A stretch of 64,000 bases of DNA from Candidatus Uhrbacteria bacterium (GTDB taxonomy: Bacteria > Patescibacteriota > Patescibacteriia > GWA2-47-26), in NCBI GenBank assembly GCA_016187515.1, contig JACPJN010000007.1, positions 4,046-68,045 of the forward strand. Direction: 5' to 3'. Below the pieces are notes generated by a model, which worked only from the letters and a program-made list of their open reading frames with translations, searched no databases and had not been told where the DNA came from. Below are positions 6,415 to 61,106 of the stretch, piece by piece. How positions within the stretch are numbered: position 1 is the first letter of the stretch; every line of letters begins with the position of its first letter. A program made the position numbers and the translations under genes.

Positions 6415-6529
6415 AGTCTTGTATTGTAGCACAAAATGTGATATACTGGTATCTAGTAATCGACCCATGGTGTTATTGAGTGGTTATGTTATTGGATGTT
6501 CAATACTTAATAACTTAATCACTTACTAA

Positions 6530-8704
<2,175 letters not shown>

Positions 8705-8705
8705 A

Positions 8706-8800
8706 ACGGAACACCCCCTCTCGCTCCCCCTCATTAAGGGGGAGAAATCGACAAACAATTTCCTCCCCTTTTCAAGGGGAGGTTGGGAGGGGTCAGGCGG
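8706..8800. repeat. REP-like palindromic elements after gyrB
   Basis: ccccctctcgctccccctcattaagggggag...cctccccttttcaaggggaggttgggaggggtc. Confidence 0.7.
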
Positions 8801-13721: not shown

Positions 13722-13851
13722 TCATTTTTTTAACTCCACTATTGTATCACCCCATGATTGATTGTCAAATATACAAATTAAATCGTATATAATGCCAAAT
13801 CCGTGGCAATCTGCGATCCGCGGCCATCTGTTACCCATCTGCGGGAATCTG

Positions 13852-14544
13852 TCATATCCTATAAACTACATCTTTTCTTTCCACCACAATTTCCCAGCCC
13901 TTCTTTTTCGCGGCTTGGTAAAGTCCGCGCGAGGGATTAAACGCGATCGCTCTTACCGCCAGCTTAAGCATGGAAATATCGCTTTCGCTATCCCCGACTG
14001 CCACCGAACCGCTAAGAGTCAAATTGTACTTTTTAACGACGTGTTTTACCAAAAACTCTTTATCAAAAACCGAATAAGTATAGCGCGCTTTACCGGTATA
14101 CCGCCTACGCGCGTCGGTTTCCAGCACCCAGCCATACGTTCTGTCAAACCGCAAAAACCGATTATACCAACGCACGATTTCAAACGGGGAGCCGGAAATT
14201 GCGACCAGAAAGTAATTTTTCTTGCGCAGTTTTTCAATCAAATCACGGGTAAAACGGTACACGTGCGATTTTTCCGCCGCAACCACGTCTCGAGATATGC
14301 GCCGCACATCCGCTTGCCGCTTGCCCTTAATGTGGCAAATAAATACTTTGACCAATTTCTCAAGATACGCGTCATAGGTGCCTTTGCGATTAAGCCAGGC
14401 GCGCAAATACGGCTCCACCTCGGCTCGCGCCCGCGCCGGAAAAATCCCCTCATTCACCAGATACGAAAACAGCCGCCGCGTCAAAGACGAGCGAAAAATC
14501 GTGCCATCAACATCAAAAACCGCGAGTTTTCTTTTGGTTGCCAT
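13852..14544 (-). CDS. HAD-superfamily hydrolase (subfamily IB-like)
   Basis: 230 aa; motif I VFDVDGTIF, later GDSESD. Confidence 0.7.
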   Translation of the reverse strand: MATKRKLAVFDVDGTIFRSSLTRRLFSYLVNEGIFPARARAEVEPYLRAWLNRKGTYDAYLEKLVKVFICHIKGKRQADVRRISRDVVAAEKSHVYRFTRDLIEKLRKKNYFLVAISGSPFEIVRWYNRFLRFDRTYGWVLETDARRRYTGKARYTYSVFDKEFLVKHVVKKYNLTLSGSVAVGDSESDISMLKLAVRAIAFNPSRGLYQAAKKKGWEIVVERKDVVYRI

Positions 14545-14574
14545 ATATTTTATTATACGCTATACTGTGAAACT

Positions 14575-15447
14575 ATGAAAGTATACCTAGACATCGTCCG
14601 TCACATTTTAGAGCATGGCGAAATGAAAGAAAACCGCACGGGCGTGCGGGCGCTTGCGATTGCCGGCGCGATGTTTGAACATGACCTGGCCTCGGGCTTC
14701 CCCCTGCTGACCACCAAAAAAATGCCGTTCAAAGTTGTGGCGACTGAACTGGAATTTTTTATTAAAGGCATTACGGACAAACAGTGGCTTAAAGACCGCA
14801 AATGCCACATCTGGGACGAATGGGCCAGCCCACGCCTCGCGGCATACGGACTCGACGAGGAATCCAAGCTGCGCATGCGCAACGAGCGCGATCTCGGACC
14901 AATTTACGGATTTCAGTGGCGTCATTTCGGAACGACATATCGTGGATATGAAGAGAATTATTCTGGCCAAGGCATCGATCAATTGAAAAATGTTGTTGAA
15001 AAATTAAAAAGCAATCCAAATGACCGTCGCATGATCGTTTCGGCGTGGAATCCCCTAGCACTTGGAGAGATGGGCCTACCGCCCTGCCATTATTCATTCC
15101 AAGTTACGGTGATCAATGGCCGGTTAAATCTGCTGTGGAACCAACGCTCGGTAGATACCATGCTGGGTTTGCCTTTCAACATTGCCAGTTATGCGTTGCT
15201 TTTGCATTTACTCGCCAAAGAGTCGGGGCTTAAAGAAGGAAAACTGGTGGGATTTCTCGGCGACGTCCACATTTATGAAAACCACGTCGAGGGCGCGCGC
15301 GAGCAAATTAGCCGCGATCCAAACACCTATCCCCTGCCCACCATCCAAACCGATCCCTGGACCGGCCTTTTCAACTGGGAAGCCCCGCATACACAACTTC
15401 TCGGCTACGAAAGTTATCCAAGAATTGAATTTGCGATTGCGGTGTAA
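14575..15447 (+). CDS. thyA: thymidylate synthase (ThyA)
   Basis: Start MKVYLDIVRHILEHGEMKENRTGV; conserved active-site region WNPLALGEMGLPPCHYSFQV; the tracked ORF 13762..15447 is an artefactual 5' extension antisense to the HAD gene. Confidence 0.9.
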   Translation: MKVYLDIVRHILEHGEMKENRTGVRALAIAGAMFEHDLASGFPLLTTKKMPFKVVATELEFFIKGITDKQWLKDRKCHIWDEWASPRLAAYGLDEESKLRMRNERDLGPIYGFQWRHFGTTYRGYEENYSGQGIDQLKNVVEKLKSNPNDRRMIVSAWNPLALGEMGLPPCHYSFQVTVINGRLNLLWNQRSVDTMLGLPFNIASYALLLHLLAKESGLKEGKLVGFLGDVHIYENHVEGAREQISRDPNTYPLPTIQTDPWTGLFNWEAPHTQLLGYESYPRIEFAIAV

Positions 15448-15450
15448 CCT

Positions 15451-16008
15451 ATGGCAGTATCTCTTATTGCGGCGGTTTCCAAAAATGGAGTGATTGGAGC
15501 GAAAAATGATCTACCTTGGTATTTGCCCGAGGACTTAAAGCATTTCAAAATGCTGACCACGGGAAAAACCGTGCTCATGGGCCGCAAAACCTTTGAGTCA
15601 ATTTTGAAGCGTCTTGGAAAACCCCTGCCGAATCGGAAAAATGTGGTGGTGACAAGGGATGTACATTACGCCCCCCCACCTCAATCCTCCCCCACCAGGG
15701 GGGAGGAAGCTCCCAAAAATTCCCCTCCCCTTGTGGGAGGGGCTAGGGGAGGGGGTGAGGGTGTATGCCTGCACCACTCGGTTGAAGAAGCGCTTGCGCA
15801 CCACCAAGACGAGGAGATAATGGTGGCCGGCGGCGGAGAAATCTTCAAGCAGACCATTGACCGCGCCGACCGGCTCTACATCACCGAGGTACACAAGGAA
15901 GTTCCCGGCGACGTGTATTTCCCCGCGATTGATCCGAACACTTGGAGCGAAACCGCGCGCGAAGACCACGAAGAGTTTTCGTTTGTAACCTACATTCGTA
16001 ATTCGTAG
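15451..16008 (+). CDS. folA: dihydrofolate reductase with in-frame REP-like insertion
   Basis: MAVSLIAAVSKNGVIGAKNDLPWYLPEDLKHFKMLTTGKTVLMGRKTFESI is canonical DHFR; ~30-aa insert PPPQSSPTRGEEAPKNSPPLVGGARGGGEGV encoded by the GGGGAG palindromic repeat at 15671-15765. Confidence 0.85.
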   Translation: MAVSLIAAVSKNGVIGAKNDLPWYLPEDLKHFKMLTTGKTVLMGRKTFESILKRLGKPLPNRKNVVVTRDVHYAPPPQSSPTRGEEAPKNSPPLVGGARGGGEGVCLHHSVEEALAHHQDEEIMVAGGGEIFKQTIDRADRLYITEVHKEVPGDVYFPAIDPNTWSETAREDHEEFSFVTYIRNS

Positions 16009-17395: not shown

Positions 17396-17473
17396 CGCGA
17401 ATCCTTACGCCGCGAATCGCGCGAATTATTCGCGTCATTGGCGGGGCAAAGCCCATCCGCGCAATCCTCGCAT

Positions 17474-19012
17474 ATGAATTACGAAGCAATAATCGGATTG
17501 GAAATTCATGTCCAACTTAAAACCAAGAGCAAGCTTTTTTGCGGTTGTGATAATCGCGGAGAAGATGCTCCGCCCAATACCACCGTCTGTCCTGTCTGTA
17601 TGGGACACCCAGGGGTGCTACCGGTTTTGAACAAGCAAGCGCTGGAGTTTGGAATCATGGCCGGACTCGCGCTTAACTGTACCATTCCGGAAAAAGCGAA
17701 ATTTGACCGGAAAAACTATTTTTATCCGGATTTACCGAAGGGCTATCAGATCTCGCAGTTTGACGAACCGATTTGTGTAAATGGACTGGTATCCATTGCG
17801 GTGCCCACGGCACAGAAAGACGCGCGCAAAAACGCGGACATCCGCATCACCCGTATCCATATGGAAGAAGACGCGGCGAAAAGCACGCATGCGGACGGCA
17901 AGACCTACGTGGACTTCAACCGCGCCGGAACTCCGCTTATTGAGACCGTTACCGAGCCGGATTTCCGCTCCCCGCTCGAGGCCAAAACCTTTCTCCAGGA
18001 GTTGCGCCGCATTATGCGCTATCTCGGCGTCTCTGACGCGGACATGGAAAAAGGGCACCTGCGCTGCGATGCGAATATCTCGCTCCGCCCTACTAACCAA
18101 GCTCCCCCCCTTAATGTAAGGGGGGGCACGGGGGGGTTATACCCCAAAACCGAAGTAAAAAATATCAACTCCTTCCGCGCGGTTGAGCGCGCGCTTCAAT
18201 ACGAAATTCAGCGGCAAACCAAGCTTTGGGACGATGGCAAACCGCCTGCGATCACGACAACCCGCGGTTGGGATGATGTGCAAGGGATTACCGTTGAACA
18301 GCGCAGCAAAGAGGACTCTGCCGATTATCACTATTTCCCCGAGCCGGACTTGCCCCCCTTGCTTCTGCGCGAAGTGGTTGACCAAGTACGCGGCCGCATG
18401 CCGGAACTGCCGCGAGCGCGCCGGCTGCGTCTTGCGGAGGAATATGGGTTTTCCCCAGGCGAGACCATGATTTTAACGGAAGAGAAACCGCTGGCGGATT
18501 ATACCGAGCAGGTAATGACCGAGCTGCAAACCTGGATACGCGACCTGGAAGAAGACGGTACCGAGGAGGAGAAATGGGAACGCAACAAAAAGAAACTGAC
18601 CAAACTGTTTTCCGGCTGGTTTATCACTAAACTTTTCGGGCTAATGGAAAAACACGCCGTGGATATTCGCACCATAAAAATCACCCCGGAAAATTTTGCG
18701 GAACTGCTGACCATGATTCACGCCAATCGCGTAAACTCGACCGCGGCGCTGCAAATTCTGGAAGAAATGTTACTCACGGGCGGCGATCCCAGCCAGATCA
18801 TGGAGGAAAAAAAGCTTGAGCAGGTCTCCAATAACGAGGAAATCACGCCGATTGTGCAGGACGTAATCGCGGCTAATCCACAAGCCATCGCTGACTTCAA
18901 AGCTGGCAAAGCTAACGCCCTACAATTCCTGGTTGGCCAGGTCATGAAATCCTCTCGCGGCAAAGCCAACCCGGACCTCGCCCAAAAACTCCTAAAAAAA
19001 CTGCTCCGCTAA
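17474..19012 (+). CDS. gatB: aspartyl/glutamyl-tRNA amidotransferase subunit B, with in-frame REP-like insertion
   Basis: Start MNYEAIIGLEIHVQL; conserved GatB regions; insert NQAPPLNVRGGTGGL encoded by palindromic repeat at 18100-18145. Confidence 0.9.
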   Translation: MNYEAIIGLEIHVQLKTKSKLFCGCDNRGEDAPPNTTVCPVCMGHPGVLPVLNKQALEFGIMAGLALNCTIPEKAKFDRKNYFYPDLPKGYQISQFDEPICVNGLVSIAVPTAQKDARKNADIRITRIHMEEDAAKSTHADGKTYVDFNRAGTPLIETVTEPDFRSPLEAKTFLQELRRIMRYLGVSDADMEKGHLRCDANISLRPTNQAPPLNVRGGTGGLYPKTEVKNINSFRAVERALQYEIQRQTKLWDDGKPPAITTTRGWDDVQGITVEQRSKEDSADYHYFPEPDLPPLLLREVVDQVRGRMPELPRARRLRLAEEYGFSPGETMILTEEKPLADYTEQVMTELQTWIRDLEEDGTEEEKWERNKKKLTKLFSGWFITKLFGLMEKHAVDIRTIKITPENFAELLTMIHANRVNSTAALQILEEMLLTGGDPSQIMEEKKLEQVSNNEEITPIVQDVIAANPQAIADFKAGKANALQFLVGQVMKSSRGKANPDLAQKLLKKLLR

Positions 19013-20127: not shown

Positions 20128-20420
20128 CCTCTTAAGATAAGAGGGGGTAGGGGGAGTTATGAACTATGTACATCTCGTAACCCCCTCTAACTCCCCCTTA
20201 CCCTAAGGGGGAGAATTTGATTGATTGTACCACAAAAAAAGAAAGGGCGCCCCGAAGGGAACCCGTGGAACACACTGCTTGGGTGGAACACCCTCACCCT
20301 ACCCTCTCCCATCAAGGGAGAGGGATTGCCCTTTTGCTTCCTCTCCCCTTTGTGGGAGAGGATTGAGGTGAGGGGGGCCCTACCGCGTTTCCCAGCCAAA
20401 ACGGCGCTGGAGCGCGCGGA
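20128..20420. repeat. cluster of REP-like palindromic elements
   Basis: cccctcttaagataagagggggtagggggagttatgaa...cgtaaccccctctaactcccccttaccctaaggggga and more copies to ~20420; tracked ORFs 20187..20552 and 20221..20607 here are artefacts. Confidence 0.7.
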
Positions 20421-34936: not shown

Positions 34937-37447
34937 TTAATCTCGCACCTTAGCATCAAACCTCTCTTTTAGCATGCGAGACAATTTTATGTGCACCTTC
35001 TCCGCTTCTTGCGCCGTCAGCGTTCGCTCGGCCGAGGCATACTGGATATGAAACGCCAGACTACGGTGTCCCTCCGGCACGCCCTTGCCTGCATACTGAT
35101 CAAACAGTTCCACGCCGGCAATGAGCGGATCAAGTTTGGCAATCGCGCCATGAATCACGGCGTACTCTTTTTCTTTGCTCACTACAAAGGCAATGTCACG
35201 CTTGACCGGCGGATACGCCGGAGGCGGCTCATACGCTCGGCCTTGACCAATCAGCGGATAGACCACGCGCATTTCCCACTCTAAAAACGCAACCCGCTGC
35301 TCTATGCCATAAGCCCTAAGCAATTGTGGATGAAGTTCACCCACTACCCCCAGTATATCACGCCCGGATTTTACGAGCAATACGCGAGAGGGGTGGTAAT
35401 GCTTGACCCACGGCGCCTTAATTGACCCGACTTTTTCATATCCAAAATTTGGCAAGGCCAAAACTTCCGCCAAATGTTCGGCCACGCCTTTTGCCGCGTA
35501 AAAATGCGCACCCTCGCGTTCTTCGCGCCCGGCACTCAACACAATGAGCTTTTGTCGTTCGTCGGGTAATTCTCCCGCACGAGGATGATATTCGCTCGAC
35601 AATTCAAACAATTTCAACTCATCCCGCGTTTTTTCATTTTCCGCCACAGCTTTGAGGAGCGAAATTCCCAGCCACGGCCGCATGTGCGCCATCTCGGAGG
35701 TCAAAGGATTGGCAAGCGCCAGCGCGTCGCGGTCCGGATCAAACCCGGCGCGCGCAACACTATCGCGAGCAACAAATGAATAGGTGTAAAGTTCGGTAAA
35801 TCCTGCGCCGCGCAACGCCTCCTTCACTTCGTGTTCGTGCGTAAATTGCACACTTTGTATCTCGAAAGGAAGATCGCCTTGTGGAAGCACACCGGGAATC
35901 CTGTGATATCCATACATCCGCGCGACTTCCTCGGCAATATCCGCAACCCCGTCCGCTTCAACCTCGCGCCAATACGGAAATTTTACGCCCCACTTTTTTG
36001 CGCCTCCCGATACGGAAAACCCAAGCGCGGTTAAATATTTTTTCATTTGCGGCGCCGGAATTTCCACGCCGATTTTCTTCGCCACCTCCACAGGCGCGAC
36101 TTTCACCGTTTTTCCTCCCCTTAAGGTAAGGGGAGGCGAGGAGGGGTTATGCCGATCCACCATCCCCACCACCTTCCCTCCGGCAATCTCGGCGGTCAAC
36201 TCCATCAATCGCGCCGCCGCAAACTCCGGCAACGGCACAGGCAATCCTTTATTAAACCGCACAGAACTCGCCGAGGTAAGCCCAATCTGATGCTCGCCGC
36301 GGCGAATCGTGAGCGCATCAAAATTCGCAATCTCGTACACGATCCGCGTTGTCCCCGCGCGCACCCCGGTTTCTTCTCCGCCCATGATGCCGGCAATCGC
36401 CACTGGCCGCTGGGCATCAGCAATCACTAGAATATTTTCATCAAGTTCGTAGGTATTCCCATCTAATGCTAAAACCTTTTCCCCTTTCTTCCCCATCCGC
36501 ACCACTATTTTTTTCCGTGTCCCATCCGTTTTATTTCCGTGTCTTTCTGTGTTATGAAGACGCTCAGCATCAAAAGCATGACACGGCTGCCCATACTCTA
36601 GTAGTACATAATTCGTGATATCCACGATATTATTTATCGGCCGCACCCCAGAGGCCATAAGCCGCCGCTGTATCCACCACGGCGACGGCCCCACCTTCAC
36701 GCCTTCCATCACCACCGCCATGTACCGCGGACACAACTTTGGCACTTCAACTTTAACGTCCAACCAATCTCCTCCCCTTAGGTTAAGGGGAGGTCGGGAG
36801 GGGTTATGACCAATTTTCAATTTTACATTTTCAATTTTACATTTTACATTGAATATCGCCCCCACCTCGCGCGCCAACCCAACTATGCCCATAGCGTCCG
36901 GACGATTGGTTGTTATTTCCACCTCAAGTACCACATCATCTAATCCAAGTGCTCTAGCCACTGGCACACCCACGCGCGCGCCCGTGGCAGTCAAATCTAA
37001 AATCTCCCGCTCTTTGTGTGGAAACATTTCATATAGCCCAATCTCATTGGCCGCGCAAATCATGCCTTCACTTTTGACGCCACGAATTTCTGTCGGTGTT
37101 AATTCCATTGGTTCACCTTCTCCATGCCAGCGCACTTTTGCTCCCGGCAGAGCTACCGCCACCAACATTCCTTCTTTAATATTCGTTCCCCCACACACAA
37201 TAGTTCGTGGTCGTTCGTCTTTATTGTTCGTGGTCGTTCGTGCTATACGCAGCTTATCGGCATTTGGATGCGGCTCTATTTCCACAATCTTCCCGACTAC
37301 AATCGCCGGATCCAGTCCTACCACCATTGGCCGCATTCGCTCCACGGAAAACGCATGAAGCGACAAGCGCTCCGCCACTTCCTCTGGGCGGGCTTTAAGT
37401 CCTGGCAAAAACTCACGCAGCCAATTATAGGAAACCAATAGGTTCAT
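34937..37447 (-). CDS. pheT: phenylalanyl-tRNA synthetase beta subunit, with multiple in-frame repeat insertions
   Basis: 836 aa; tRNA-binding N-domain, B3/4, B5, FDX-ACB; inserts from REP elements (PPLNLRGG at ~36110-36150; SSPPLTLRGG at ~36770-36808) and tandem repeats (36815-36850, 37195-37250). Confidence 0.9.
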   Translation of the reverse strand: MNLLVSYNWLREFLPGLKARPEEVAERLSLHAFSVERMRPMVVGLDPAIVVGKIVEIEPHPNADKLRIARTTTNNKDERPRTIVCGGTNIKEGMLVAVALPGAKVRWHGEGEPMELTPTEIRGVKSEGMICAANEIGLYEMFPHKEREILDLTATGARVGVPVARALGLDDVVLEVEITTNRPDAMGIVGLAREVGAIFNVKCKIENVKLKIGHNPSRPPLNLRGGDWLDVKVEVPKLCPRYMAVVMEGVKVGPSPWWIQRRLMASGVRPINNIVDITNYVLLEYGQPCHAFDAERLHNTERHGNKTDGTRKKIVVRMGKKGEKVLALDGNTYELDENILVIADAQRPVAIAGIMGGEETGVRAGTTRIVYEIANFDALTIRRGEHQIGLTSASSVRFNKGLPVPLPEFAAARLMELTAEIAGGKVVGMVDRHNPSSPPLTLRGGKTVKVAPVEVAKKIGVEIPAPQMKKYLTALGFSVSGGAKKWGVKFPYWREVEADGVADIAEEVARMYGYHRIPGVLPQGDLPFEIQSVQFTHEHEVKEALRGAGFTELYTYSFVARDSVARAGFDPDRDALALANPLTSEMAHMRPWLGISLLKAVAENEKTRDELKLFELSSEYHPRAGELPDERQKLIVLSAGREEREGAHFYAAKGVAEHLAEVLALPNFGYEKVGSIKAPWVKHYHPSRVLLVKSGRDILGVVGELHPQLLRAYGIEQRVAFLEWEMRVVYPLIGQGRAYEPPPAYPPVKRDIAFVVSKEKEYAVIHGAIAKLDPLIAGVELFDQYAGKGVPEGHRSLAFHIQYASAERTLTAQEAEKVHIKLSRMLKERFDAKVRD

Positions 37448-37812: not shown

Positions 37813-38952
37813 CTAAAATTGTTCCAAAAAATTTAAGTCATTATTATACAACACCCTGATATCATCAATGCGCAAACCCTGCTTCATCATGTAGCTCCGC
37901 TCCACTCCAAACCCAAACGCAAATCCACTCCACACTTTTGGATCAAGTCCGCCTGCTTTTAAAACATTGGGGTGTACCATGCCGGCGCCAGCAAGCTCAA
38001 GCCAGCCGGACTTACAAAGTCTGCACTTCTCCCCTCCCCTTAAGGTAAGGGGAGGTTGGGAGGGGTTATGAACATAACCAGTGCCATGACACACGCCACA
38101 TGATACATCTACTTCAAACGACGGTTCGGTAAATCGAAAGTGAAACGGCCGCAAACGAATTCTACGCTCCGGCCCAAAAAAGACGCGCGCGAAATATTCA
38201 AGCGTTCCCTTCAAATGCGTCACTGCGACATTCCGATCAATGAGGAGTCCTTCAAACTGATGAAACATCGGCACATGCGACACATCTGATTGCCTACGAT
38301 AACACTTAGCCAGGTTGATCATCCGAATCGGCGGCTTGCGTCGTTCCATCTCGCGCACTTGGCCATTGGAAGTATGCGGTGTAAGCACCATTTTTCCAAA
38401 CTTTGGATGCTCAATGTAATTTCCGCGTTGTTCCGCGATATGCTCTAGCGAGACGTTCCGCGTGGTTCCGCGACCTACAAAATAGGTCTCCCACTCATCC
38501 CGCGCTGGATGTCCCTTCGGCATGTTCAACGCCTCAAACGCATAATAATCCCAATCTACCTCCGGATACCGCATCCGATAAAATCCCAACTGCGCGAAAA
38601 TCCGGGTAATCTCCTCAATCGCCTGGGTCGTAATATGCAAATGCCCCAGCGGCGGCCGCGTCCCCGGAAGCGTCACATCCAGTTTCTCTTGCTCCGCCAG
38701 CTTGCCCAGCGCCACACCTTCCAACTCTTTTACGTGTTGTTGTAGTGCTGTCATGATGTACTGCTTTAGTGTATTCAACTCCTGTCCCGCTTTTTTCCGC
38801 TCCTCGCCTTTCATTTCCGCAAGTTCGGAAAATAATCCGGTCATGGTTCCTTTTCTTCCCAAAAATTCAATACGCACAGCCTCAAGCCCGGCCGCGTCAC
38901 GCGCCGCCTCAATCTTCTTTTTCACGATGTTCTCAATTTCCTTAAGGTCCAT
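37813..38952 (-). CDS. pheS: phenylalanyl-tRNA synthetase alpha subunit, with in-frame REP-like and tandem-repeat insertions
   Basis: 379 aa; class II catalytic core; insert HNPSQPPLTLRGGEKCRLC from REP at 38030-38072; gttccgcg tandem repeats at 38400-38470. Confidence 0.9.
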   Translation of the reverse strand: MDLKEIENIVKKKIEAARDAAGLEAVRIEFLGRKGTMTGLFSELAEMKGEERKKAGQELNTLKQYIMTALQQHVKELEGVALGKLAEQEKLDVTLPGTRPPLGHLHITTQAIEEITRIFAQLGFYRMRYPEVDWDYYAFEALNMPKGHPARDEWETYFVGRGTTRNVSLEHIAEQRGNYIEHPKFGKMVLTPHTSNGQVREMERRKPPIRMINLAKCYRRQSDVSHVPMFHQFEGLLIDRNVAVTHLKGTLEYFARVFFGPERRIRLRPFHFRFTEPSFEVDVSCGVCHGTGYVHNPSQPPLTLRGGEKCRLCKSGWLELAGAGMVHPNVLKAGGLDPKVWSGFAFGFGVERSYMMKQGLRIDDIRVLYNNDLNFLEQF

Positions 38953-41941: not shown

Positions 41942-42649
41942 CTATTTTGACTTTCTCCTTTTCTGCTTCACTTTAAAATATGCACGCGGTGATAAATCAT
42001 AAATCTCACCATCTTCCTTCTGTCGCTGCATCTGCCGCCAAACCCGTATTACGCGCGGGCTGCATTTTTTACAGTCGGCTTCAATCAGCGCGTAATATCG
42101 GTGCAAGCCAAGGTACTTTAATAAGCCGTGTAGCGCTGGTTCGGGATTGTACTTTGTAACCCACACGGAAAACTGCCACATTTGAAATCCGCTTGCTTTA
42201 AGAAGTTTCCGTAAGTGATCGCGATGCTTTCGCAACCGTTCTGGAATATCAAAAATTACCACCCGCCAGGCGCGATCCCACTTTTGTTTGCGCTGATCTT
42301 CCATGTGCTGTATAAATCGTATCCGCAGTATTTCGTACTTACCCTTGGCAGTCAAACGATACAACTGCTCCTCTCCTTCTTGCACTAACTCGATGTAATG
42401 TTCCTGCTTTAAATAGTGGATACGCCGCATCAGCCGCCTATATTCTCGTTTTCTGCGCGCGCGTTCACGTTCTATATAGGCCACTGGTCCAAAGCCGCCT
42501 AAACTCCAGCGTACATGCGATGGCACGTGGATACCTCCCCCCTTTAGATTTGTAGCCTGAAGTTCGAGCAATGCGATTTGTAACTCTTGCAGTTGTAATC
42601 GAGTACTCATAGATATGAGACCGCTGAACAATTGATTATTCGTGTTCAT
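41942..42649 (-). CDS. PaaX-family transcriptional regulator (winged HTH + PaaX_C-like domain)
   Basis: 235 aa; YRLTAKGKYEIL resembles PaaX wHTH FYSLTxKG; WDRAWRVVIFDIPERLRKHRDHLRKLLKASGFQMWQFSVWV matches PaaX_C WDGxW...LxxxGFGxLxxGVW; family match is inference from motif recall, no search run. Confidence 0.55.
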   Translation of the reverse strand: MNTNNQLFSGLISMSTRLQLQELQIALLELQATNLKGGGIHVPSHVRWSLGGFGPVAYIERERARRKREYRRLMRRIHYLKQEHYIELVQEGEEQLYRLTAKGKYEILRIRFIQHMEDQRKQKWDRAWRVVIFDIPERLRKHRDHLRKLLKASGFQMWQFSVWVTKYNPEPALHGLLKYLGLHRYYALIEADCKKCSPRVIRVWRQMQRQKEDGEIYDLSPRAYFKVKQKRRKSK

Positions 42650-44328: not shown

Positions 44329-45153
44329 CTACAGCCTTGCGGCTTTAAGATTAATGGACATTCCGAGCCATTTTTCCGCCAGTTCCTGAAATTTCGGCGT
44401 TTTTTTGCTGACATAGAATTCGTGTTTCGGAGCACTCATAACTCCCCTAACCCCTCTTACCTTAAGAGGGGAATCCGATTGATCGTTCCTCCCCTTAAGG
44501 TAAGGGGAGGCAGGAGGGGTTATGAACTGTTGAACTTCACGCGCCACCGTCTCCGCCGAATCCACGAGCTGCACACGATTGCCCACAATATCAGCAATCA
44601 CGCCTTTAAGCCAGGGGTAATGCGTACACCCTAAAATAAGCGTATCAACCTGCGCGCGCTGAAACGGCGCAAGATACTGCTCCGCCACTTCATAGGTCGT
44701 CGGATGCACCAAGCGCCCAGCTTCAACCAGCGGAACGAACAAGGGACATTCCCGGGCATTAATGCCGCGGCACCATTTTTGATACGCGCCGCTTTGCACA
44801 GTGGTCCGCGTGCCAATTACTCCAATCCGGCCATTATGTGTCCGGCGCAGCGCTTCGCGCACGGCCGGAGTAATCACTTCAAAAATCGGCACGCTGGGAA
44901 ATTCCTTGCGCAACGCTAATCCCGACACCGCGGAGGCCGTATTGCAGCCCACCACAATCATTTGCGCTTTTTTCTTTAGTAAAAACTTCGCGTTTTGCAG
45001 CGCGTAGCCCGCCACGGTCTCCGGCGGCTTATTGCCGTACGGCGTTCGCGCCGTATCGCCAAAATAAATAATTTTCTCGCGGGGTAGCGCCGCCATTACG
45101 GCTTTCGCCACGGTCAATCCGCCGAGTCCTGAATCGAAAATTCCGATTGTCAT
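44329..45153 (-). CDS. murI: glutamate racemase with in-frame REP-like insertions
   Basis: IGIFDSGLGGLTVAKAV, GCNTAS, GCTHYP motifs; inserts DSPLKVRG(VRG) encoded by REP copies at 44440-44528. Confidence 0.85.
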   Translation of the reverse strand: MTIGIFDSGLGGLTVAKAVMAALPREKIIYFGDTARTPYGNKPPETVAGYALQNAKFLLKKKAQMIVVGCNTASAVSGLALRKEFPSVPIFEVITPAVREALRRTHNGRIGVIGTRTTVQSGAYQKWCRGINARECPLFVPLVEAGRLVHPTTYEVAEQYLAPFQRAQVDTLILGCTHYPWLKGVIADIVGNRVQLVDSAETVAREVQQFITPPASPYLKGRNDQSDSPLKVRGVRGVMSAPKHEFYVSKKTPKFQELAEKWLGMSINLKAARL

Positions 45154-45950
45154 AGAACCCCAAGCCAAGAGCGAATAAATTGTTTTGTCTGCTTTGGACC
45201 GGAAACCGCAATGCACTTAACTCCAGTACGGCGCACGGCAAAGTCGTTGCCACCGGGAAATAACGCATCGCCGATAAATAACATCTGCCGTTTTGGAACA
45301 TGTAAATGTTTTTCAATCTGTCGTATCCCATAGGCCTTATCAATACCCTTTTTGGTCACATCAATGGAGGTATAACCCGCAGCACGAACTTCCAAGTTCG
45401 GTAAACGACGCTGCAGAGCGCGCGCGAGTTTCATTTTAATCTTTTTATTCCCTGCCAGCCACTGCTTTTTAAGTTCTACCCCGCGCTGACCTAAGGACGC
45501 GACAATTTCCTGTCCCAAAGCGGAAAAAGTCACTTGCGTGCCGCGATCTTCAATCACCGAGCCATAAACCTTCTTGGGATGCACATAACCAACTTCTCTG
45601 AATGCCTCTTGGAAAGCTTTGCGGATCGCCTGTTTTTCTCTTTTGGTAAGTTTCAATTCATACACCTTTTTCCATCCAGACGCGTAACGATAAAAAGCCG
45701 TGGCCGTGGTGGGAAACAGAAAAAGATTTCCCAGCAACTTTGTTGGCGCGCGCAAATGACCGATAAATTGACTTTTAAAAACGTCGTATTTGCCGCCGCC
45801 GATAACCGCCACTATTTTCTTTTTTAATAGTGCCTTAAGCAGTCCCGACATCTCTTTATCCATTGGGGATTTGGTCTCGGTAAGCGTCCCGTCCAAGTCA
45901 AACACAATAAGCGTTTGCTTGATTAGATCGGCATCTTGGCGGGCTTGCAT
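45150..45950 (-). CDS. HAD-superfamily hydrolase (IIB-like)
   Basis: Motif I LIVFDLDGTLTE, motif IV FIGDALFPGGND. Confidence 0.65.
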   Translation of the reverse strand: MQARQDADLIKQTLIVFDLDGTLTETKSPMDKEMSGLLKALLKKKIVAVIGGGKYDVFKSQFIGHLRAPTKLLGNLFLFPTTATAFYRYASGWKKVYELKLTKREKQAIRKAFQEAFREVGYVHPKKVYGSVIEDRGTQVTFSALGQEIVASLGQRGVELKKQWLAGNKKIKMKLARALQRRLPNLEVRAAGYTSIDVTKKGIDKAYGIRQIEKHLHVPKRQMLFIGDALFPGGNDFAVRRTGVKCIAVSGPKQTKQFIRSWLGVL

Positions 45951-53556: not shown

Positions 53557-55953
53557 TTACTCCAAATGCGCCTTTCCTTCTTTTTGCATAATCTCGGCCC
53601 GTAATTGTGGATAACTGCGCAACTCCGGATCCTGGGCAAGCAACTCCTGTGCGGCCGCTTTGGCCGCTTTGGCAATCTCGACATCCGCAAAAGAGGCAAT
53701 TTTGAACTCCGGGAACCCGGACTGGGCGGTTCCGCTATAGATTTCCCCTGGGCCGCGCAGTGCTAAGTCGCGCTCGGCCAGCTCAAAACCGTTGTCACAC
53801 TCTAAAAACGCCTTAAGGCGTGCCGGACCCCTCCTCACCTCCCCTTCTCCTCCCGAGGCGGATCCGCCTTGGGCGGAAAAAGGGGAGGAAATTTCCCCCC
53901 CTGCCCGAGGGGGGGTTCGGGGGGGTGGGAGATCATCCACCATCAGCAAACAATACGATTGCGCCTCTCCGCGCCCGACTCTACCCCTAAATTGATGCAG
54001 TTGTGCCAAACCAAAATTCTGTACCCCTTCGATCACCATGACGGTAGCATTCGGAACATCAATGCCCACCTCAATCACGGGAGTGGCCACCAGGATATCA
54101 ATCCTGCTCATTTTGTCATTCTGAGCCGGAGGCGAAGAATCCCGTCCACCACGAGAATCACGGGATCCCTCGCTTGCGCTCGGGATGACAGAAGCGAATT
54201 CCTCCATCACTTTCTCGCGTTCTTTGCTCTTCATCCGGCCATGCAAAAGTCCTACGTGCAAATCTGGGAATATGTCATTTTTCAAATGCTCAAACACTTC
54301 GGTGGCGGCTTTGACTCCTAGGGTGTCGGAGGGATCAATAATCGGACAAGTCCAAAATACCTGATGGCCGGCGGCAACTTGCCCGCGCACAAAGTCATGA
54401 GCTTGTTCGCGGGACCAGACCGCATCCTCACCCTGCCCCCCTCCCCTAACCCCTCCCACCAAGGGAGGGGGATTTGTTTTTACTCCCTCTCCCCTTGTGG
54501 GAGAGGGCGGGGGTGAGGGGTGGTCCGCCACCAAAATCGTCTCAATCCTCTGCCTCCCTTTCGGCATTTCTTTGAGCACCGAGATATCCAAATCGCCATA
54601 AAACACGAGCGCTAAACTGCGCGGAATTGGCGTGGCGGTCAGCGTGAGCAAATGCGGCATCAGACCGTCGCCGCGTTTTTCTTTAAGCGCCGCGCGCTGG
54701 GAAACCCCAAACCGATGCTGTTCATCCACAACCGCGAGCACCAGATTTTTAAACTTCACGCCGCCCTGGATTAGCGCGTGGGTGCCAACGATTACATCCG
54801 CCTCGATCAGTTGCTTCTTTCTTTTCTCCTCTCCGATGCGCAAAGCAATCGTAATTCCCTGCGGTTCCAGAAATTTTGAAAATGTCTTAAAATGTTGGCG
54901 CGCCAAAATCTCGGTCGGCGCCATAATCGCCACTTGCCCCCTCGACGCTAGACCCTCGACGCTAGACCCTAAAACGGCATTGAGCGCCGCAATCGCCACC
55001 ACCACGGTTTTCCCCGATCCCACCTCTCCTTCCAGGAGACGATTCATAGGGTGAACGAATTGAACTGAACTACCGTTGTTTAGTTGTTGAGTTGTTCGGT
55101 TGTTCAGTTCTTTGCGGCCACTCATATCGCAAAGAATCTCCCACGCGGCCTTGCGCTGATCATCAGTCAACTGGAACGGAAGTCCTTCCACGAACTTTTT
55201 AGTCACCGCTTCGTGAAATTCTACCTCGGGCGCCGAAATTTTTTTCAGCTCGCGCTTGAGGGACACCGCGAATAATTGCAAACGCAGTAATTCATCAAAC
55301 TTCAGCCGCCGGCGGGCCTCCTCCAGCTTGGCTTCATCCGGCGGGAAATGTATCGCGGTAAGCGCCTGCGGAAGGTGGGTCAACCCATAGCGATCCTTAA
55401 TCGCAACCGGAAGCGGATCCGGCACGCTTCGCGCAAGCGGAAGCGCCTGACGCACTAAAAACCGGATCTGCTTTTGCGATAACTTTTCAGTGGAGGGATA
55501 GACCGGCACCAGCCGCGCCGCATGCGTCGCGGGGCGTTTACTCACCTTCTCATACATCGGCGAGGAAAGATAAAGTCCGCTCCCTTCATCTTTCGCGTAC
55601 CCGACGAGATAAACTTCATCGCCGGATTTAAACATTTTCGCGACCCACGGCTGATTAAACCAAACCACGCGTACCGACCCGGTCCCGTCCCCCACCACGG
55701 CCTGGGTAAGCAGCTTGCGTTTCCACTTGCTTCGCGCGCTTTCAATCAGCTCCACTCTCCCGCGCACCACCACCCGCTCCCCGGGACGCACCGCTTTTAT
55801 TTCCGTCAGGCGAGAAAGATCGTCCCAGCGCGAGGGAAAATAAAAAAGAAGGTCCTGGGCGGTAAGGACCCCAAGGTGACGTAACTGGGAGGCAACTTTC
55901 GCGCCAATATGGGACAGTTCCGTGACAGGACTTGATAATATAGCCCGGATCAT
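53557..55953 (-). CDS. recG: ATP-dependent DNA helicase RecG with multiple in-frame repeat insertions
   Basis: 798 aa; wedge/OB N-domain, helicase motifs (GSGKT, DEQHRFG, TATPIPR), C-terminal domain; inserts from REP elements at 53828-53932 and 54428-54522, a second hairpin element at 54100-54190, and tandem repeats at 55060-55110. Confidence 0.9.
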   Translation of the reverse strand: MIRAILSSPVTELSHIGAKVASQLRHLGVLTAQDLLFYFPSRWDDLSRLTEIKAVRPGERVVVRGRVELIESARSKWKRKLLTQAVVGDGTGSVRVVWFNQPWVAKMFKSGDEVYLVGYAKDEGSGLYLSSPMYEKVSKRPATHAARLVPVYPSTEKLSQKQIRFLVRQALPLARSVPDPLPVAIKDRYGLTHLPQALTAIHFPPDEAKLEEARRRLKFDELLRLQLFAVSLKRELKKISAPEVEFHEAVTKKFVEGLPFQLTDDQRKAAWEILCDMSGRKELNNRTTQQLNNGSSVQFVHPMNRLLEGEVGSGKTVVVAIAALNAVLGSSVEGLASRGQVAIMAPTEILARQHFKTFSKFLEPQGITIALRIGEEKRKKQLIEADVIVGTHALIQGGVKFKNLVLAVVDEQHRFGVSQRAALKEKRGDGLMPHLLTLTATPIPRSLALVFYGDLDISVLKEMPKGRQRIETILVADHPSPPPSPTRGEGVKTNPPPLVGGVRGGGQGEDAVWSREQAHDFVRGQVAAGHQVFWTCPIIDPSDTLGVKAATEVFEHLKNDIFPDLHVGLLHGRMKSKEREKVMEEFASVIPSASEGSRDSRGGRDSSPPAQNDKMSRIDILVATPVIEVGIDVPNATVMVIEGVQNFGLAQLHQFRGRVGRGEAQSYCLLMVDDLPPPRTPPRAGGEISSPFSAQGGSASGGEGEVRRGPARLKAFLECDNGFELAERDLALRGPGEIYSGTAQSGFPEFKIASFADVEIAKAAKAAAQELLAQDPELRSYPQLRAEIMQKEGKAHLE

Positions 55954-55985
55954 GTAGAATAACTTCTAATGGTGTTCCAAACTTT

Positions 55986-56057
55986 GCCCCTGTAGTTCAA
56001 TGGATCGAATGCAAGATTGCGGATCTTGTGATCCAGGTTCGATTCCTGGCGGGGGCA
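55986..56057 (+). tRNA. tRNA-Arg (anticodon GCG), no encoded CCA
   Basis: 7-bp acceptor gcccctg/cgggggc with one U.G pair; anticodon stem caaga/tcttg, loop ttGCGga; T-arm ccagg-ttcgatt-cctgg; acceptor extended by tgttccaaacttt / agagtttggaaca. Confidence 0.6.
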
Positions 56058-56258
56058 GAGTTTGGAACAGCATGTCCCGATCGCGATCGGGATGATCTAG
56101 GTTCTGCGCCAAAGGCGCATCCGCCTCAGGCGGAGATTCCTGGCGGGGGCAGAGTTTGGAACGGCATGTCCCGATCGCGATCGGGATGATCTAGGTTCTG
56201 CGCCAAAGGCGCATCCGCCTCAGGCGGAGATTCCTGGCGGGGGCAGAGTTTGGAACAG
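56058..56258 (+). repeat. tandem 94-bp direct repeats (2 units + partial) each ending in the last 17 nt of the tRNA
   Basis: gattcctggcgggggca at 56041, 56135, 56229 (period 94); unit contains palindrome cccgatcgcgatcggg and two short hairpins. Confidence 0.8.
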
Positions 56259-56259
56259 A

Positions 56260-56751
56260 TTAGATTCTTAACATCCGGGCCAGCCAGTCGGAGATCGGCT
56301 CTTCGGTTTTGGAAGTATCCTCGCGGACCAGTCCGCGCAAAATCGCGCGGATACTATCGGGGTTAATCTCGCCAAGCGGGATTGGCAAACGCGGCCGCAA
56401 TCCTCCAAATTCAAAATAAAGCGTTTTTACCGCGGGCGGGGCATCCACCACCCAAAAATGATCTATATCTTTCCAGGGATAAAAACGCTCTCCCAGAGCA
56501 ATGCCGCGCTGCGCGATAATAAACCGATAGGCCCGCGGAGGCCGTAAACTGTGGGTCGCGAAAATAATGCCAAACATTATAACAATGAACGCGAAGAGAA
56601 AATTGCGGCTGCTCACGGCATAAATCAGCAAAAGTATCCCCACCGCTGCCGCCGCGATCGCCCAAGCCAATCCGCGGGCATGCTGATGATATTCCCGGAT
56701 TTCCCAGGAAAGTAACTCCGGCCCGTAATTACCCGTATTTGCTGTGGTCAT
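56260..56751 (-). CDS. membrane protein with PH-like C-terminal domain (hypothetical)
   Basis: 163 aa; two TM helices then soluble domain. Confidence 0.4.
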   Translation of the reverse strand: MTTANTGNYGPELLSWEIREYHQHARGLAWAIAAAAVGILLLIYAVSSRNFLFAFIVIMFGIIFATHSLRPPRAYRFIIAQRGIALGERFYPWKDIDHFWVVDAPPAVKTLYFEFGGLRPRLPIPLGEINPDSIRAILRGLVREDTSKTEEPISDWLARMLRI

Positions 56752-58700: not shown

Positions 58701-58875
58701 ATAATTAAGCCAGTATATCATATTTCCAAACCATAAACCACCCTTGCGGGGTGGCTTGTTTTACTTCAGTAGATGGCGGGCCGTACGGGATTTGCCTTGC
58801 ACTACGCAGAGTGCATGGCACCCTGTACCCTATGTGGTGCAGGGTGAACCCTCATTCCGTGACCCCGCCCAAAGC

Positions 58876-58932: not shown

Positions 58933-59277
58933 TTATTTCACAGCAGCGACAATCTTCGCAAATACGGCCGGGTGCTCAATGGCGAGTGTGGAAAGCACTT
59001 TGCGGTCAAGAGTAATGCCTTTCTTGTGCAGCGCGGAGATCAGCGTGGAGTACTTCATGCCTTCTTCGCGCGCGGCGGCATTGAGCCGAATATTCCAAAG
59101 CGCCCGGAATTCCCGCTTTTTGCGGCGGCGATCAACATAGGCGTGCGCGCCGGCCTTCAAAACCGCCGGCTTCATGAGCGTTATCTTGGACTTGCGTCCC
59201 CACTTGTACCCCTTGGTCGCGGCTAAAAATTTCTTCCTTCGTTTGATTCGATGTGTTCCTCGTTTGACTCGTGGCAT
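58933..59277 (-). CDS. rplT: 50S ribosomal protein L20
   Basis: MPRVKRGTHRIKRRKKFLAATKGYKWGRKS canonical L20. Confidence 0.95.
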   Translation of the reverse strand: MPRVKRGTHRIKRRKKFLAATKGYKWGRKSKITLMKPAVLKAGAHAYVDRRRKKREFRALWNIRLNAAAREEGMKYSTLISALHKKGITLDRKVLSTLAIEHPAVFAKIVAAVK

Positions 59278-59362
59278 ATTGATCGGTGAATCAAGTGAAT
59301 CAAGCAAGACAAGCAAGTCAAGCTGCTTGATTTACCTGATTTACTTGCTTTACTTGATTTAC

Positions 59363-60628: not shown

Positions 60629-60668
60629 CCTAATAACTCAATAACTTAATAACTCGGTACTCTCAATT

Positions 60669-61106
60669 GGTGGAGGTGGAGGGAGTTGAACCCTCGTCTA
60701 GTAAATCCTTCGCATTCAACACTACAAGCTTAGCTTTCTTTGGATTTTTGGAACGCGCCTGAAAGAAAGCAAACAGCGCGCTCCTAGTCTTTGCCAATCT
60801 CAAGCATGTCGGGTAAGACCTCCGTCATGCTCCATCCTCTAATTACAGGAGTGCCCCGCTAGAGGAATCGCGGGACTCCTGACACACTGCTTAAAAAGCG
60901 GCGTGTGCAAAGGCCGGAGCTCTGAAAGTGCTGAAAGCATTTGTCAGAGTATTCCAACCCATAGATACGTTCTTGGCATGTATCAATTTCCCTGACCGTT
61001 TTATCCCGACCTAAGTCGGGATCCCGACTTTACGTCGGGACGAGTGGACAGAGTTGCTCGGCTTGCGTCAAAGTGCGTTGAACTCCTATCGATGCCCGTC
61101 ACCCCC
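60669..61106 (-). ncRNA. ssrA: tmRNA (SsrA)
   Basis: minus strand 5' GGGGGUGACGGG... and 3' ...GAGGGUUCAACUCCCUCCACCUCCACCA: tRNA-like acceptor with G3.U70, T-arm GGGUUCAACUCCC, encoded CCA; 5' end preceded by a perfect hairpin; smpB adjacent; tag-peptide frame not assigned. Confidence 0.7.

Follow-up and report, generated by a model that had tools for sequence, protein, structure and literature searches.

The window, a 64-kb stretch of DNA, comes from the metagenome-assembled genome (MAG) of an uncultured groundwater Candidatus Uhrbacteria, a member of the candidate phyla radiation (CPR). Between recG and a gene for a small conserved membrane protein lies a tRNA-Arg gene with the anticodon GCG, followed by a tandem array of 94-nt units that end in copies of the tRNA 3' end and carry a pair of hairpins within the copied T loop. 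These tail units appear to be partial copies of the tRNA gene, and units of the same layout were found at other tRNA genes of CPR genomes. The housekeeping genes on either side of the array keep their synteny in relatives, which were collected by genome and metagenome scans centred on recG synteny (their loci are cited by L number); about six independent tail units were compared. The database entry for the 163-aa membrane protein beside the array calls it hypothetical and assigns it to a Candidatus Uhrbacteria MAG, and the nearest relatives of the window recG are CPR/Patescibacteria MAGs. An exact-protein look-up found no identical RecG protein on record. The features of the locus, and of a related unit elsewhere in the window, are as follows.

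55932-55960, + strand: sigma-70-like promoter TTGATA-17 nt-TAGAAT, ~25 nt 5' of the tRNA (consensus scan, 10/12 matches, prediction only)
55973-55985, + strand: leader arm tgttccaaacttt of a 13-bp helix that prolongs the acceptor stem (fold; covariation across five loci)
55986-56057, + strand: tRNA-Arg, anticodon GCG, 72 nt, no encoded CCA (ARAGORN, Rfam RF00005)
56041-56069, + strand: first copy of the direct repeat, made of the 3'-terminal 17 nt of the tRNA (G57-A73) and the 12-nt trailer (three exact 28-mers)
56057-56069, + strand: trailer arm agagtttggaaca (A73 + gagtttggaaca), partner of the leader arm (sequence, fold, covariation)
56058-56151, + strand: tail unit 1, 94 nt (Tandem Repeats Finder, MAFFT alignment)
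56075-56092 (unit 1) and 56169-56186 (second copy), no strand: perfect 18-nt palindrome tcccgatcgcgatcggga (sequence)
56105-56134, + strand: hairpin cassette of unit 1, TGCGCCAAAGGCGCA + TCCGCCTCAGGCGGA, after GGTTC at 56100-56104 and before GATTCC
56152-56245, + strand: tail unit 2, 94 nt, different from unit 1 at one base (Tandem Repeats Finder, MAFFT alignment)
56199-56228, + strand: hairpin cassette of unit 2, identical to that of unit 1, after GGTTC at 56194-56198
56246-56257, + strand: third copy of the trailer arm, with 2 nt between it and the stop codon of the convergent gene
56260-56751, - strand: gene convergent with the array
58774-58873, - strand: tail unit at the tRNA-Asp locus of the window (pattern scan, sequence comparison)

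ARAGORN placed tRNA-Arg(gcg) at 55985-56058, and the Rfam tRNA model matched 55986-56057 with 63.7 bits against a gathering score of 29, as for a canonical tRNA. The tRNA that an earlier note on this DNA had read from the letters is therefore present, and it is a normal gene that stands alone. A transcript from the sigma-70-like site is predicted to take in the entire leader arm. No intrinsic terminator was found 3' of the array, and the sole terminator-like site falls within the downstream open reading frame (ORF). The GCG anticodon is unusual across bacteria generally, and the earlier note had singled it out as uncommon. That is true of bacteria at large but not here, because 29/29 distinct tRNA-Arg genes adjoining recG among relatives have GCG; the anticodon is the norm for the lineage and marks nothing special at the window locus. 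A tRNA-Arg(GCG) beside recG is a conserved arrangement among CPR relatives. The tRNA is oriented toward recG in many of them (L081, L117/L176, L167, L170, L185), and in the window, L001, L171, L173 and L187 it is inverted and lies by itself between recG and the gene of the membrane protein.

The flanks of the tRNA pair with each other. Leader and trailer form 13 pairs, one G-U among them, with the discriminator A73 paired to U-1, and together with the seven acceptor pairs they make an unbroken 20-bp duplex. The minimum-energy fold of 55968-56075 contains the 13-bp helix (z = -8.5 against shuffled sequences). The extended acceptor stem first noticed at this locus is thus borne out by fold and covariation, although its leader begins at 55973, one base to the left of the 55974 given before. 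Covariation was scored in a gapless alignment of the five inverted tRNA-Arg loci. Among these 91% of the cells of the 20-pair helix are paired, and 10/20 pairs are altered on both sides, values reached by 0/500 shuffles. As a control the partner was slid by 1-3 columns, and pairing fell to 41-54%. The four pairs closest to the tRNA are conserved (CUUU/AGAG), and the distal arms are unrelated in sequence among the five loci. An acceptor stem prolonged by at least 13 pairs occurs at 5/29 tRNA-Arg loci compared with 0/49 other tRNAs (permuted control mean 0.31). These results show that the extended helix is conserved as a structure and not as a sequence.

The leader/trailer processing stems of rRNA operons are cut by RNase III. 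As in those stems, the sequences on either side of a stable RNA come together here in a covarying duplex of ~20 bp; unlike them, the window stem encloses a single tRNA and runs on from the acceptor stem, and its cleavage is predicted. As a leader/trailer duplex of about two turns held by covariation, it fits a processing stem of the RNase III type. Because it covaries in the five relatives, the extended helix is most likely a double-stranded processing or stabilising stem of the tRNA precursor, sized for RNase III. In L187 a T run stands 3' of the trailer arm, and the arm may therefore also bring about transcription termination there. The covarying 20-bp duplex of leader, trailer and acceptor stem hints at an unusual route of tRNA-precursor processing in CPR bacteria.

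Tandem Repeats Finder reported a period of 94 with 2.3 copies and 98% matches over 56041-56258, in agreement with the two full units and one partial unit noticed earlier. Exact copies of the 28-mer GATTCCTGGCGGGGGCAGAGTTTGGAAC start at 56041, 56135 and 56229, three where 0 are expected by chance, and the two full units are 99% identical, differing by a single base (56069 a, 56163 g). The earlier note had also seen each unit close with the tRNA's final 17 nt and a common sequence after them; these exact copies confirm it, and the common trailer is 12 nt long. Each unit is made up, in order, of the trailer arm, the 18-nt palindrome, TGATCTAGGTTC, a 30-nt two-hairpin cassette and GATTCCTGGCGGGGGCA. 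The cassette consists of two abutting 15-nt GC-rich hairpins, TGCGCC-AAA-GGCGCA and TCCGCC-TCA-GGCGGA, and lies precisely between T-loop C56 and G57. Independent short-read assemblies of the same organism (L164-L166, at least 3 samples) stop within the last tail copy. The organism is also present in metagenomes SRR12113385, SRR12113426 and SRR12113428. The contig ends of the short-read assemblies confirm the right-hand junction and show that assemblers break at the 94-nt repeat.

Comparison of the unit with the tRNA indicates how much of the gene may have been copied. MAFFT aligned TGATCTAGGTTC to TGATCCAGGTTC of the tRNA, opened a 30-nt gap and then aligned 29 identical bases. TGATCTAGGTTC agrees with the variable loop and 5' T stem at 11/12 positions. 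Local alignment of the 5' part of the unit to the tRNA scored 20, and shuffled sequences scored 10.9 +/- 2.1, with 6/2000 reaching the observed value. When GGTTC was left out the likeness was reached by 702/2000 shuffles and is not significant. Because the significance lies in the variable-loop/T-stem block only, the unit is a partial tRNA copy covering roughly positions 44-73, and a copy of the whole tRNA is not demonstrable. The tail units appear to be partial, non-functional copies that comprise variable loop, T stem, acceptor 3' strand, discriminator and trailer.

Other readings of the units were rejected. The 94-nt units were not called as tRNAs by ARAGORN, nor by Rfam even at E <= 10, and T stems are poorly kept in other units, so a D-armless or otherwise functional tRNA was discarded. 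A degenerate full-length tRNA that includes the anticodon arm was discarded since the same 702/2000 shuffles match the likeness 5' of the variable loop; the resemblance of the 18-nt palindrome to the anticodon arm is insignificant taken alone. CCA is present on the tails of L006, L081 and the window Asp unit, but a retro-copy of mature tRNA was rejected: in the Arg tails the genomic trailer (GAG..., or 12 nt) has been copied instead of CCA. The left flank GGRATGA is not above chance in the window, and in L171 it amounts to no more than the helix trailer arm.

All fetched loci were scanned for GGTTC, a structured stretch of 22-75 nt, RAWTCC and a tail, a pattern that gives false positives in GC-rich genomes. 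The layout GGTTC / two hairpins / RAWTCC + 3' strand recurs at tRNA-Asp, tRNA-Arg and tRNA-Ser loci of CPR genomes. The Asp unit of the window consists of GGGTTC (58851-58846), a 52-nt two-hairpin cassette (58845-58794) and the tail AAATCCCGTACGGCCCGCCA (58793-58774), identical to the 3' end of L001's intact tRNA-Asp. At the tRNA-Arg of L171 the gene is followed by a 12-nt trailer arm, GGGTTC, a 52-nt cassette and an exact 17-nt copy of its own end plus GAG. L171 is a filled site with 87 nt inserted and a 20-nt direct repeat; L187, with an identical tRNA, is the empty one. Tail units also follow tRNA-Ser(TGA), with an exact 18-nt tail copy in L006, L090 and L160 and with a tail that does not match the adjacent tRNA in L081. 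In 76 tRNA contexts (E. coli tyrV included) copies of the 3' tail were found seven times downstream and twice upstream, both upstream copies being in the E. coli tyrT-tyrV spacer, and a copy of the 5' head was found only once.

The cassettes fall into families. Those of the window Asp unit and the L171 Arg unit are identical at 42/52 positions and differ by two compensatory stem-pair changes among others; the second hairpin of this 52-nt cassette is the first in an inverted version. The 30-nt cassettes of window Arg and L081 Ser are identical at 24/30 positions, with differences in the loops and in one compensatory pair. Cassette families thus cross tRNA identities (Asp/Arg, Arg/Ser). Within the 64-kb window, cassettes occur at two tRNA loci only, plus one related hairpin pair inside recG.

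The tRNA-Asp(GTC) gene that precedes the Asp unit (58969-58874, - strand) is itself aberrant and overlaps the end of rplT (58933-59316, - strand). ARAGORN was silent on it, and the Rfam tRNA model gave 34.9 bits over model positions 10-63 only. A cloverleaf can be drawn with acceptor GGCCGU/ACGGCC, D stem GCGA/UCGC and normal anticodon and T arms. An additional 24-nt arm between the D and anticodon arms holds the rplT stop codon. The gene has no encoded CCA and is followed by the tail unit with the 52-nt cassette (58873-58774); L001 has a normal tRNA-Asp.

Small structured elements were also seen in other contigs. In L178 (IMG/VR contig IMGVR_UViG_3300033489_000052, putative viral) three tandem hairpins CCATGMACC-ACGYAG-GGTKCATGG of the 52-nt cassette family lie at ~6480-6600, intergenic and 5' of a gene start; L178 excepted, matches to the cassette patterns in IMG/VR were chance matches. 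In L173 a palindromic element of ~170 nt that resembles a miniature inverted-repeat transposable element (ggggactgttgccgaatacc ... gcgtatttagcaacagtccc) lies at ~1990-2165, 3' of the inverted tRNA-Arg and at the place that tail units occupy in the window. Small structured elements seem to accumulate at this spot behind the inverted tRNA-Arg.

The closest known parallel to the window array was found in Escherichia coli (E. coli). The tyrT-tyrV locus of strain K-12 contains a tandem repeat of 178 bp x 3.1 (3.14 copies). Read base by base, its unit runs ...CTTCGACCAAGGTTCGA, 65 hairpin-rich nt, AATCCTTCCCCCACCACCA and the same trailer. These repeats were reportedly first described by Egan and Landy in 1978 and Rossi et al. 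in 1981. RttR (rtT RNA) is annotated from just past tyrV to the CCA of the first pseudo-tail, and the Rfam RtT model (RF00391), run as a positive control, recovered four E. coli copies with 133-138 bits. The fourth copy, at ~1364-1495 of L184 (E. coli K-12 1286000-1287600; 132.9 bits), is in the tyrT-tyrV spacer and ends in a tRNA-Tyr tail, so that tail units stand both between and after the two tRNA genes. A recent preprint gives the rtT RNA a part in processing of the tyrT transcript and possibly in the stringent response (bioRxiv 10.1101/2024.07.17.603846).

The two arrays are built alike. In both, the tandem repeat begins inside the 3' end of the last tRNA gene, the units end in the terminal 17-19 nt of the tRNA plus a common trailer, the variable-arm and 5' T-stem sequence (CTTCGA..AGGTTCGA in E. 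coli) is kept upstream of the tail, and a hairpin-rich insert divides the T loop, in ~2-3 copies. The T loop is split as GGTTC/30 nt/GATTCC in the window and as GGTTCGA/65 nt/AATCC in E. coli. There is, in contrast, no homology of sequence or structure between the E. coli and CPR units. The unit measures 94 nt in the CPR window and 178 in E. coli, and the insert is a compact 30-nt hairpin pair at C56/G57 in the former and 65 nt at A58/A59 in the latter. Unlike E. coli, the window array has no tpr-like conserved ORF and no encoded CCA, the CPR tRNA is enclosed by the 13-bp leader/trailer helix, and the CPR cassettes belong to families common to different tRNAs. No RtT (RF00391) match was obtained in 55800-56400, even at E <= 10. 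Since the same model finds the E. coli copies, the CPR units share the tyrT-type architecture yet lie outside the RtT family.

On balance, we favour the view that the locus is a stand-alone tRNA-Arg(GCG) gene with a processing helix and two tail units, the second of which arose by duplication, and that the array takes part in tyrT-like processing. This view builds on established points: how the array is composed, that its layout recurs, that helix and hairpin stems covary, and that E. coli offers a parallel; for the mechanism of duplication, transcription, processing and any function we infer the following course. A single tail unit would be an old, recurrent feature of CPR tRNA loci. Bracketed as it is by 29-nt direct repeats (tRNA tail + trailer), the unit could have given rise to a second copy through unequal recombination or replication slippage between them, and the same events could also delete units. 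One transcript from the tRNA promoter would cover both tRNA and array, and cuts after each A73-equivalent, made by the enzymes that mature tRNA 3' ends, would release RNAs of ~94 nt.

Several observations count against this view. For co-transcription and for cleavage, the analogy with E. coli tyrT is the sole basis. The number of units, two plus a partial one, comes from one MAG assembly. A single unit folds no better than shuffled sequences (z = -1.6), and homology of the unit to the tRNA 5' of the variable loop is not significant in local alignment against shuffles. Only 3/5 pairs of the fragment T stem are kept in L171, L081 and L006, as read from their sequences. Because these T stems are poorly kept, the fragments are not conserved tRNA-like RNAs; conservation covers their position and the hairpins but no tRNA-like fold. 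Plain duplication does not account for a cassette that always stands at C56/R57, nor for one cassette family shared by different tRNA identities. It also leaves unexplained the single degenerate unit of L001, whose tail CTGGCGGGGGCA is of the window type and foreign to L001's own tRNA, and the difference in cassette between the window and L171 at their orthologous Arg loci.

A more tentative suggestion is that the tail units are an undescribed class of element associated with tRNA genes in CPR and, convergently or anciently, with tyrT in E. coli. Portable two-hairpin cassettes might be placed at C56/R57 by a dedicated DNA mechanism that targets GGTTCRAWTCC, a universally conserved sequence, while sparing the gene via tail duplication, or the units might be a selected processed small RNA. 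The earlier note had held that the same repeats conserved in relatives as a structured RNA would argue for function rather than an integration scar. Relatives and other tRNA loci do have the same layout, a tail copy with hairpins in the T loop, with compensatory changes in the hairpin stems, and this ground against an integration scar is thereby present in part.

Somewhat less likely, in our judgment, is a small non-autonomous mobile element, composed of the short left part, GGTTC and the cassette, that is moved in trans and inserts at or near the tRNA T loop or 3' end, duplicating the tail and leaving the gene intact. It would explain why cassette families are portable across tRNA identities and genomes at ~80% identity with their stems preserved, why the tail is exactly that of the local tRNA in the window, L171 and L006, and why the tRNA is identical at a filled site and an empty one. 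Same-family hairpins stand in tandem in IMG/VR contig L178, and this genome has further small palindromic insertions, even in frame within recG. The duplicated length, however, varies (18, 20, 29 nt), unlike a fixed target-site duplication, the L001 and L081 tails mismatch the adjacent tRNA, no transposase was seen in the window, and there are only six independent examples. REP/REPIN sequences are elements mobilised by RAYT transposases. The window cassettes share with them short GC-rich palindromes at gene ends and stems kept by compensation, and the inverted second hairpin of the 52-nt cassette forms a doublet resembling those of REP. They differ from REP/REPIN in being undispersed and fixed at one position of tRNA tails, and the 30-nt cassette is two abutting 15-nt hairpins without a spacer. 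In the 64 kb they were found at the two tRNA loci and as the related recG pair, with no RAYT gene seen and no Y1 transposase among the scanned window ORFs. The left and right ends of IS200/IS605 elements have a characteristic spacing; a mini-element of that type was rejected, as abutting 15-nt hairpins lack such spacing and no TnpA was found.

The earlier note had interpreted the repeats as the footprint of site-specific integration and excision at the tRNA gene. What stands of this is an indel bounded by tRNA tails among relatives (L171 filled, L187 empty); the specific attL/attR mechanism lacks support. That the tail copies are decayed or imprecisely excised attL/attR remnants at the tRNA-Arg 3' end, or stacked att-flanked remnants that have lost an integrase, is in our view improbable, and the integration-scar reading of the window array is weakly supported. 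Direct repeats from the T loop to the 3' end are what tRNA-targeting integrases leave, and the window has three exact G57-A73 copies. The filled and empty sites are orthologous and have clean 20-nt repeats, and the L001 tail is unlike its own tRNA, as though of outside origin. Partial tRNA genes from integration are widespread, but in documented cases direct repeats of ~44 bp lie 9-23 kb apart, between partial and full copies, and enclose an integrase (at least 9-23 kb; PMC9897764). Here ~65 nt (65-67) separate the tails and hold no coding remnant, the identity runs 12 nt beyond the tRNA into the trailer, the copied T loop contains hairpins, the copies form a tandem array, and the flanking genes are housekeeping genes that stay syntenic in relatives. 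The absence of an integrase from the window, already remarked on before, was upheld by a domain search: none of the 20 otherwise unassigned window ORFs has an integrase or transposase Pfam domain, and no recombinase was found. The exact 17-mer had three matches in IMG/VR, all of them chance matches within ORFs, and gave no attP. Compared by blastn with the phages of INPHARED and the plasmids of PLSDB, the whole locus matched the generic tRNA-Arg body only. All three libraries have few CPR elements, so these negatives are weak. A single att specificity, moreover, would not place one cassette family behind different tRNA identities. A recombination-based origin, perhaps via a trans-acting enzyme encoded elsewhere, is possible because of the L171/L187 pair and the foreign L001 tail.

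We regard as very unlikely that the copy number is an assembly artefact, in which one unit or a variable number of units is present and the MAG assembler joined two strain variants in tandem. Short-read contigs of at least 3 samples stop inside the repeat, and the single-base difference between the units could equally be a strain variant. Yet the 94-nt period is below usual read lengths and the three junctions are internally consistent. Single units are present independently in other genomes, so the feature is real at any count.

Duplicated tail units behind a tRNA gene with a processing helix, the view favoured here, would place the E. coli repeats in a wider setting. For over 40 years the tyrT repeats and rtT RNA have stood by themselves as a curiosity, with no agreement on origin and function. 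An equivalent arrangement in a very distant lineage with tiny genomes, at several tRNA genes, opens the class to comparative study, in which cassette families, the lengths of the direct repeats, and sites with and without a unit can be tabulated. Its members would have interchangeable hairpin cassettes at one exact T-loop position across several tRNA genes. In practice, tails of this kind disrupt short-read assemblies and may be misread as pseudo-tRNAs or integration scars.

Beside the array, recG (53557-55953, - strand) encodes 798 aa, compared with ~690-710 aa in the full-length relatives L001, L170 and L002. It has four in-frame insertions (55051-55119, 54415-54513, 54106-54192, 53827-53931) that are not in any aligned homologue. 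GC-rich hairpin-forming DNA makes up three of the four, and an 8-bp tandem repeat makes up one; in one there is a hairpin pair resembling the second hairpin of the Arg cassette. The insertions resemble the in-frame palindromic elements of Rickettsia.

Other small palindromes are scattered through the window. The repeat CCCC(C)TTA-N3-TAAGGGG(G) has ~10 copies with conserved flanks (..agg...gggaggg), which start at the following positions.

9543, 13034, 18104, 20193, 23074, 36117, 36774, 38036, 38968, 44491: CCCC(C)TTA-N3-TAAGGGG(G)

Five of the copies are intergenic and five are in ORFs (17438-19012, 34937-37447 with two, 37813-38952, 44329-45216). The mini-element is prolific and able to sit within coding sequence. 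Paired hairpins of a second family, CCYCYCCC-N4/5-GGGRGRGG, occur at 8724-8782, 15686-15742 and 54450-54506 (also 557-577 and 20303-20323). One of the pairs is intergenic, one is inside recG, and one is in ORF 15451-16008, which by eye we take to be dihydrofolate-reductase-like.

Three further genes of the window are unusual. An isolated protein encoded at 41942-42649 (- strand) has a Cas2-like/PaaX central domain (PF20803, PF09827), with no CRISPR array noticed nearby. The 561-aa ORF at 13762-15447 (+ strand) has a thymidylate synthase domain in residues 274-561 only, preceded by a 270-aa N-terminal extension that has no Pfam match. The transfer-messenger RNA (tmRNA) gene at 60668-61106 (- strand; Rfam 112.8 bits), next to a gene for a 23S rRNA intervening-sequence protein (PF05635; 60230-60628, - strand), is 439 nt long with an unusually long predicted tag, AKNVSMGWNTLTNAFSTFRAPAFAHAAF; the tmRNA of the relative L001 has 379 nt and a shorter tag.

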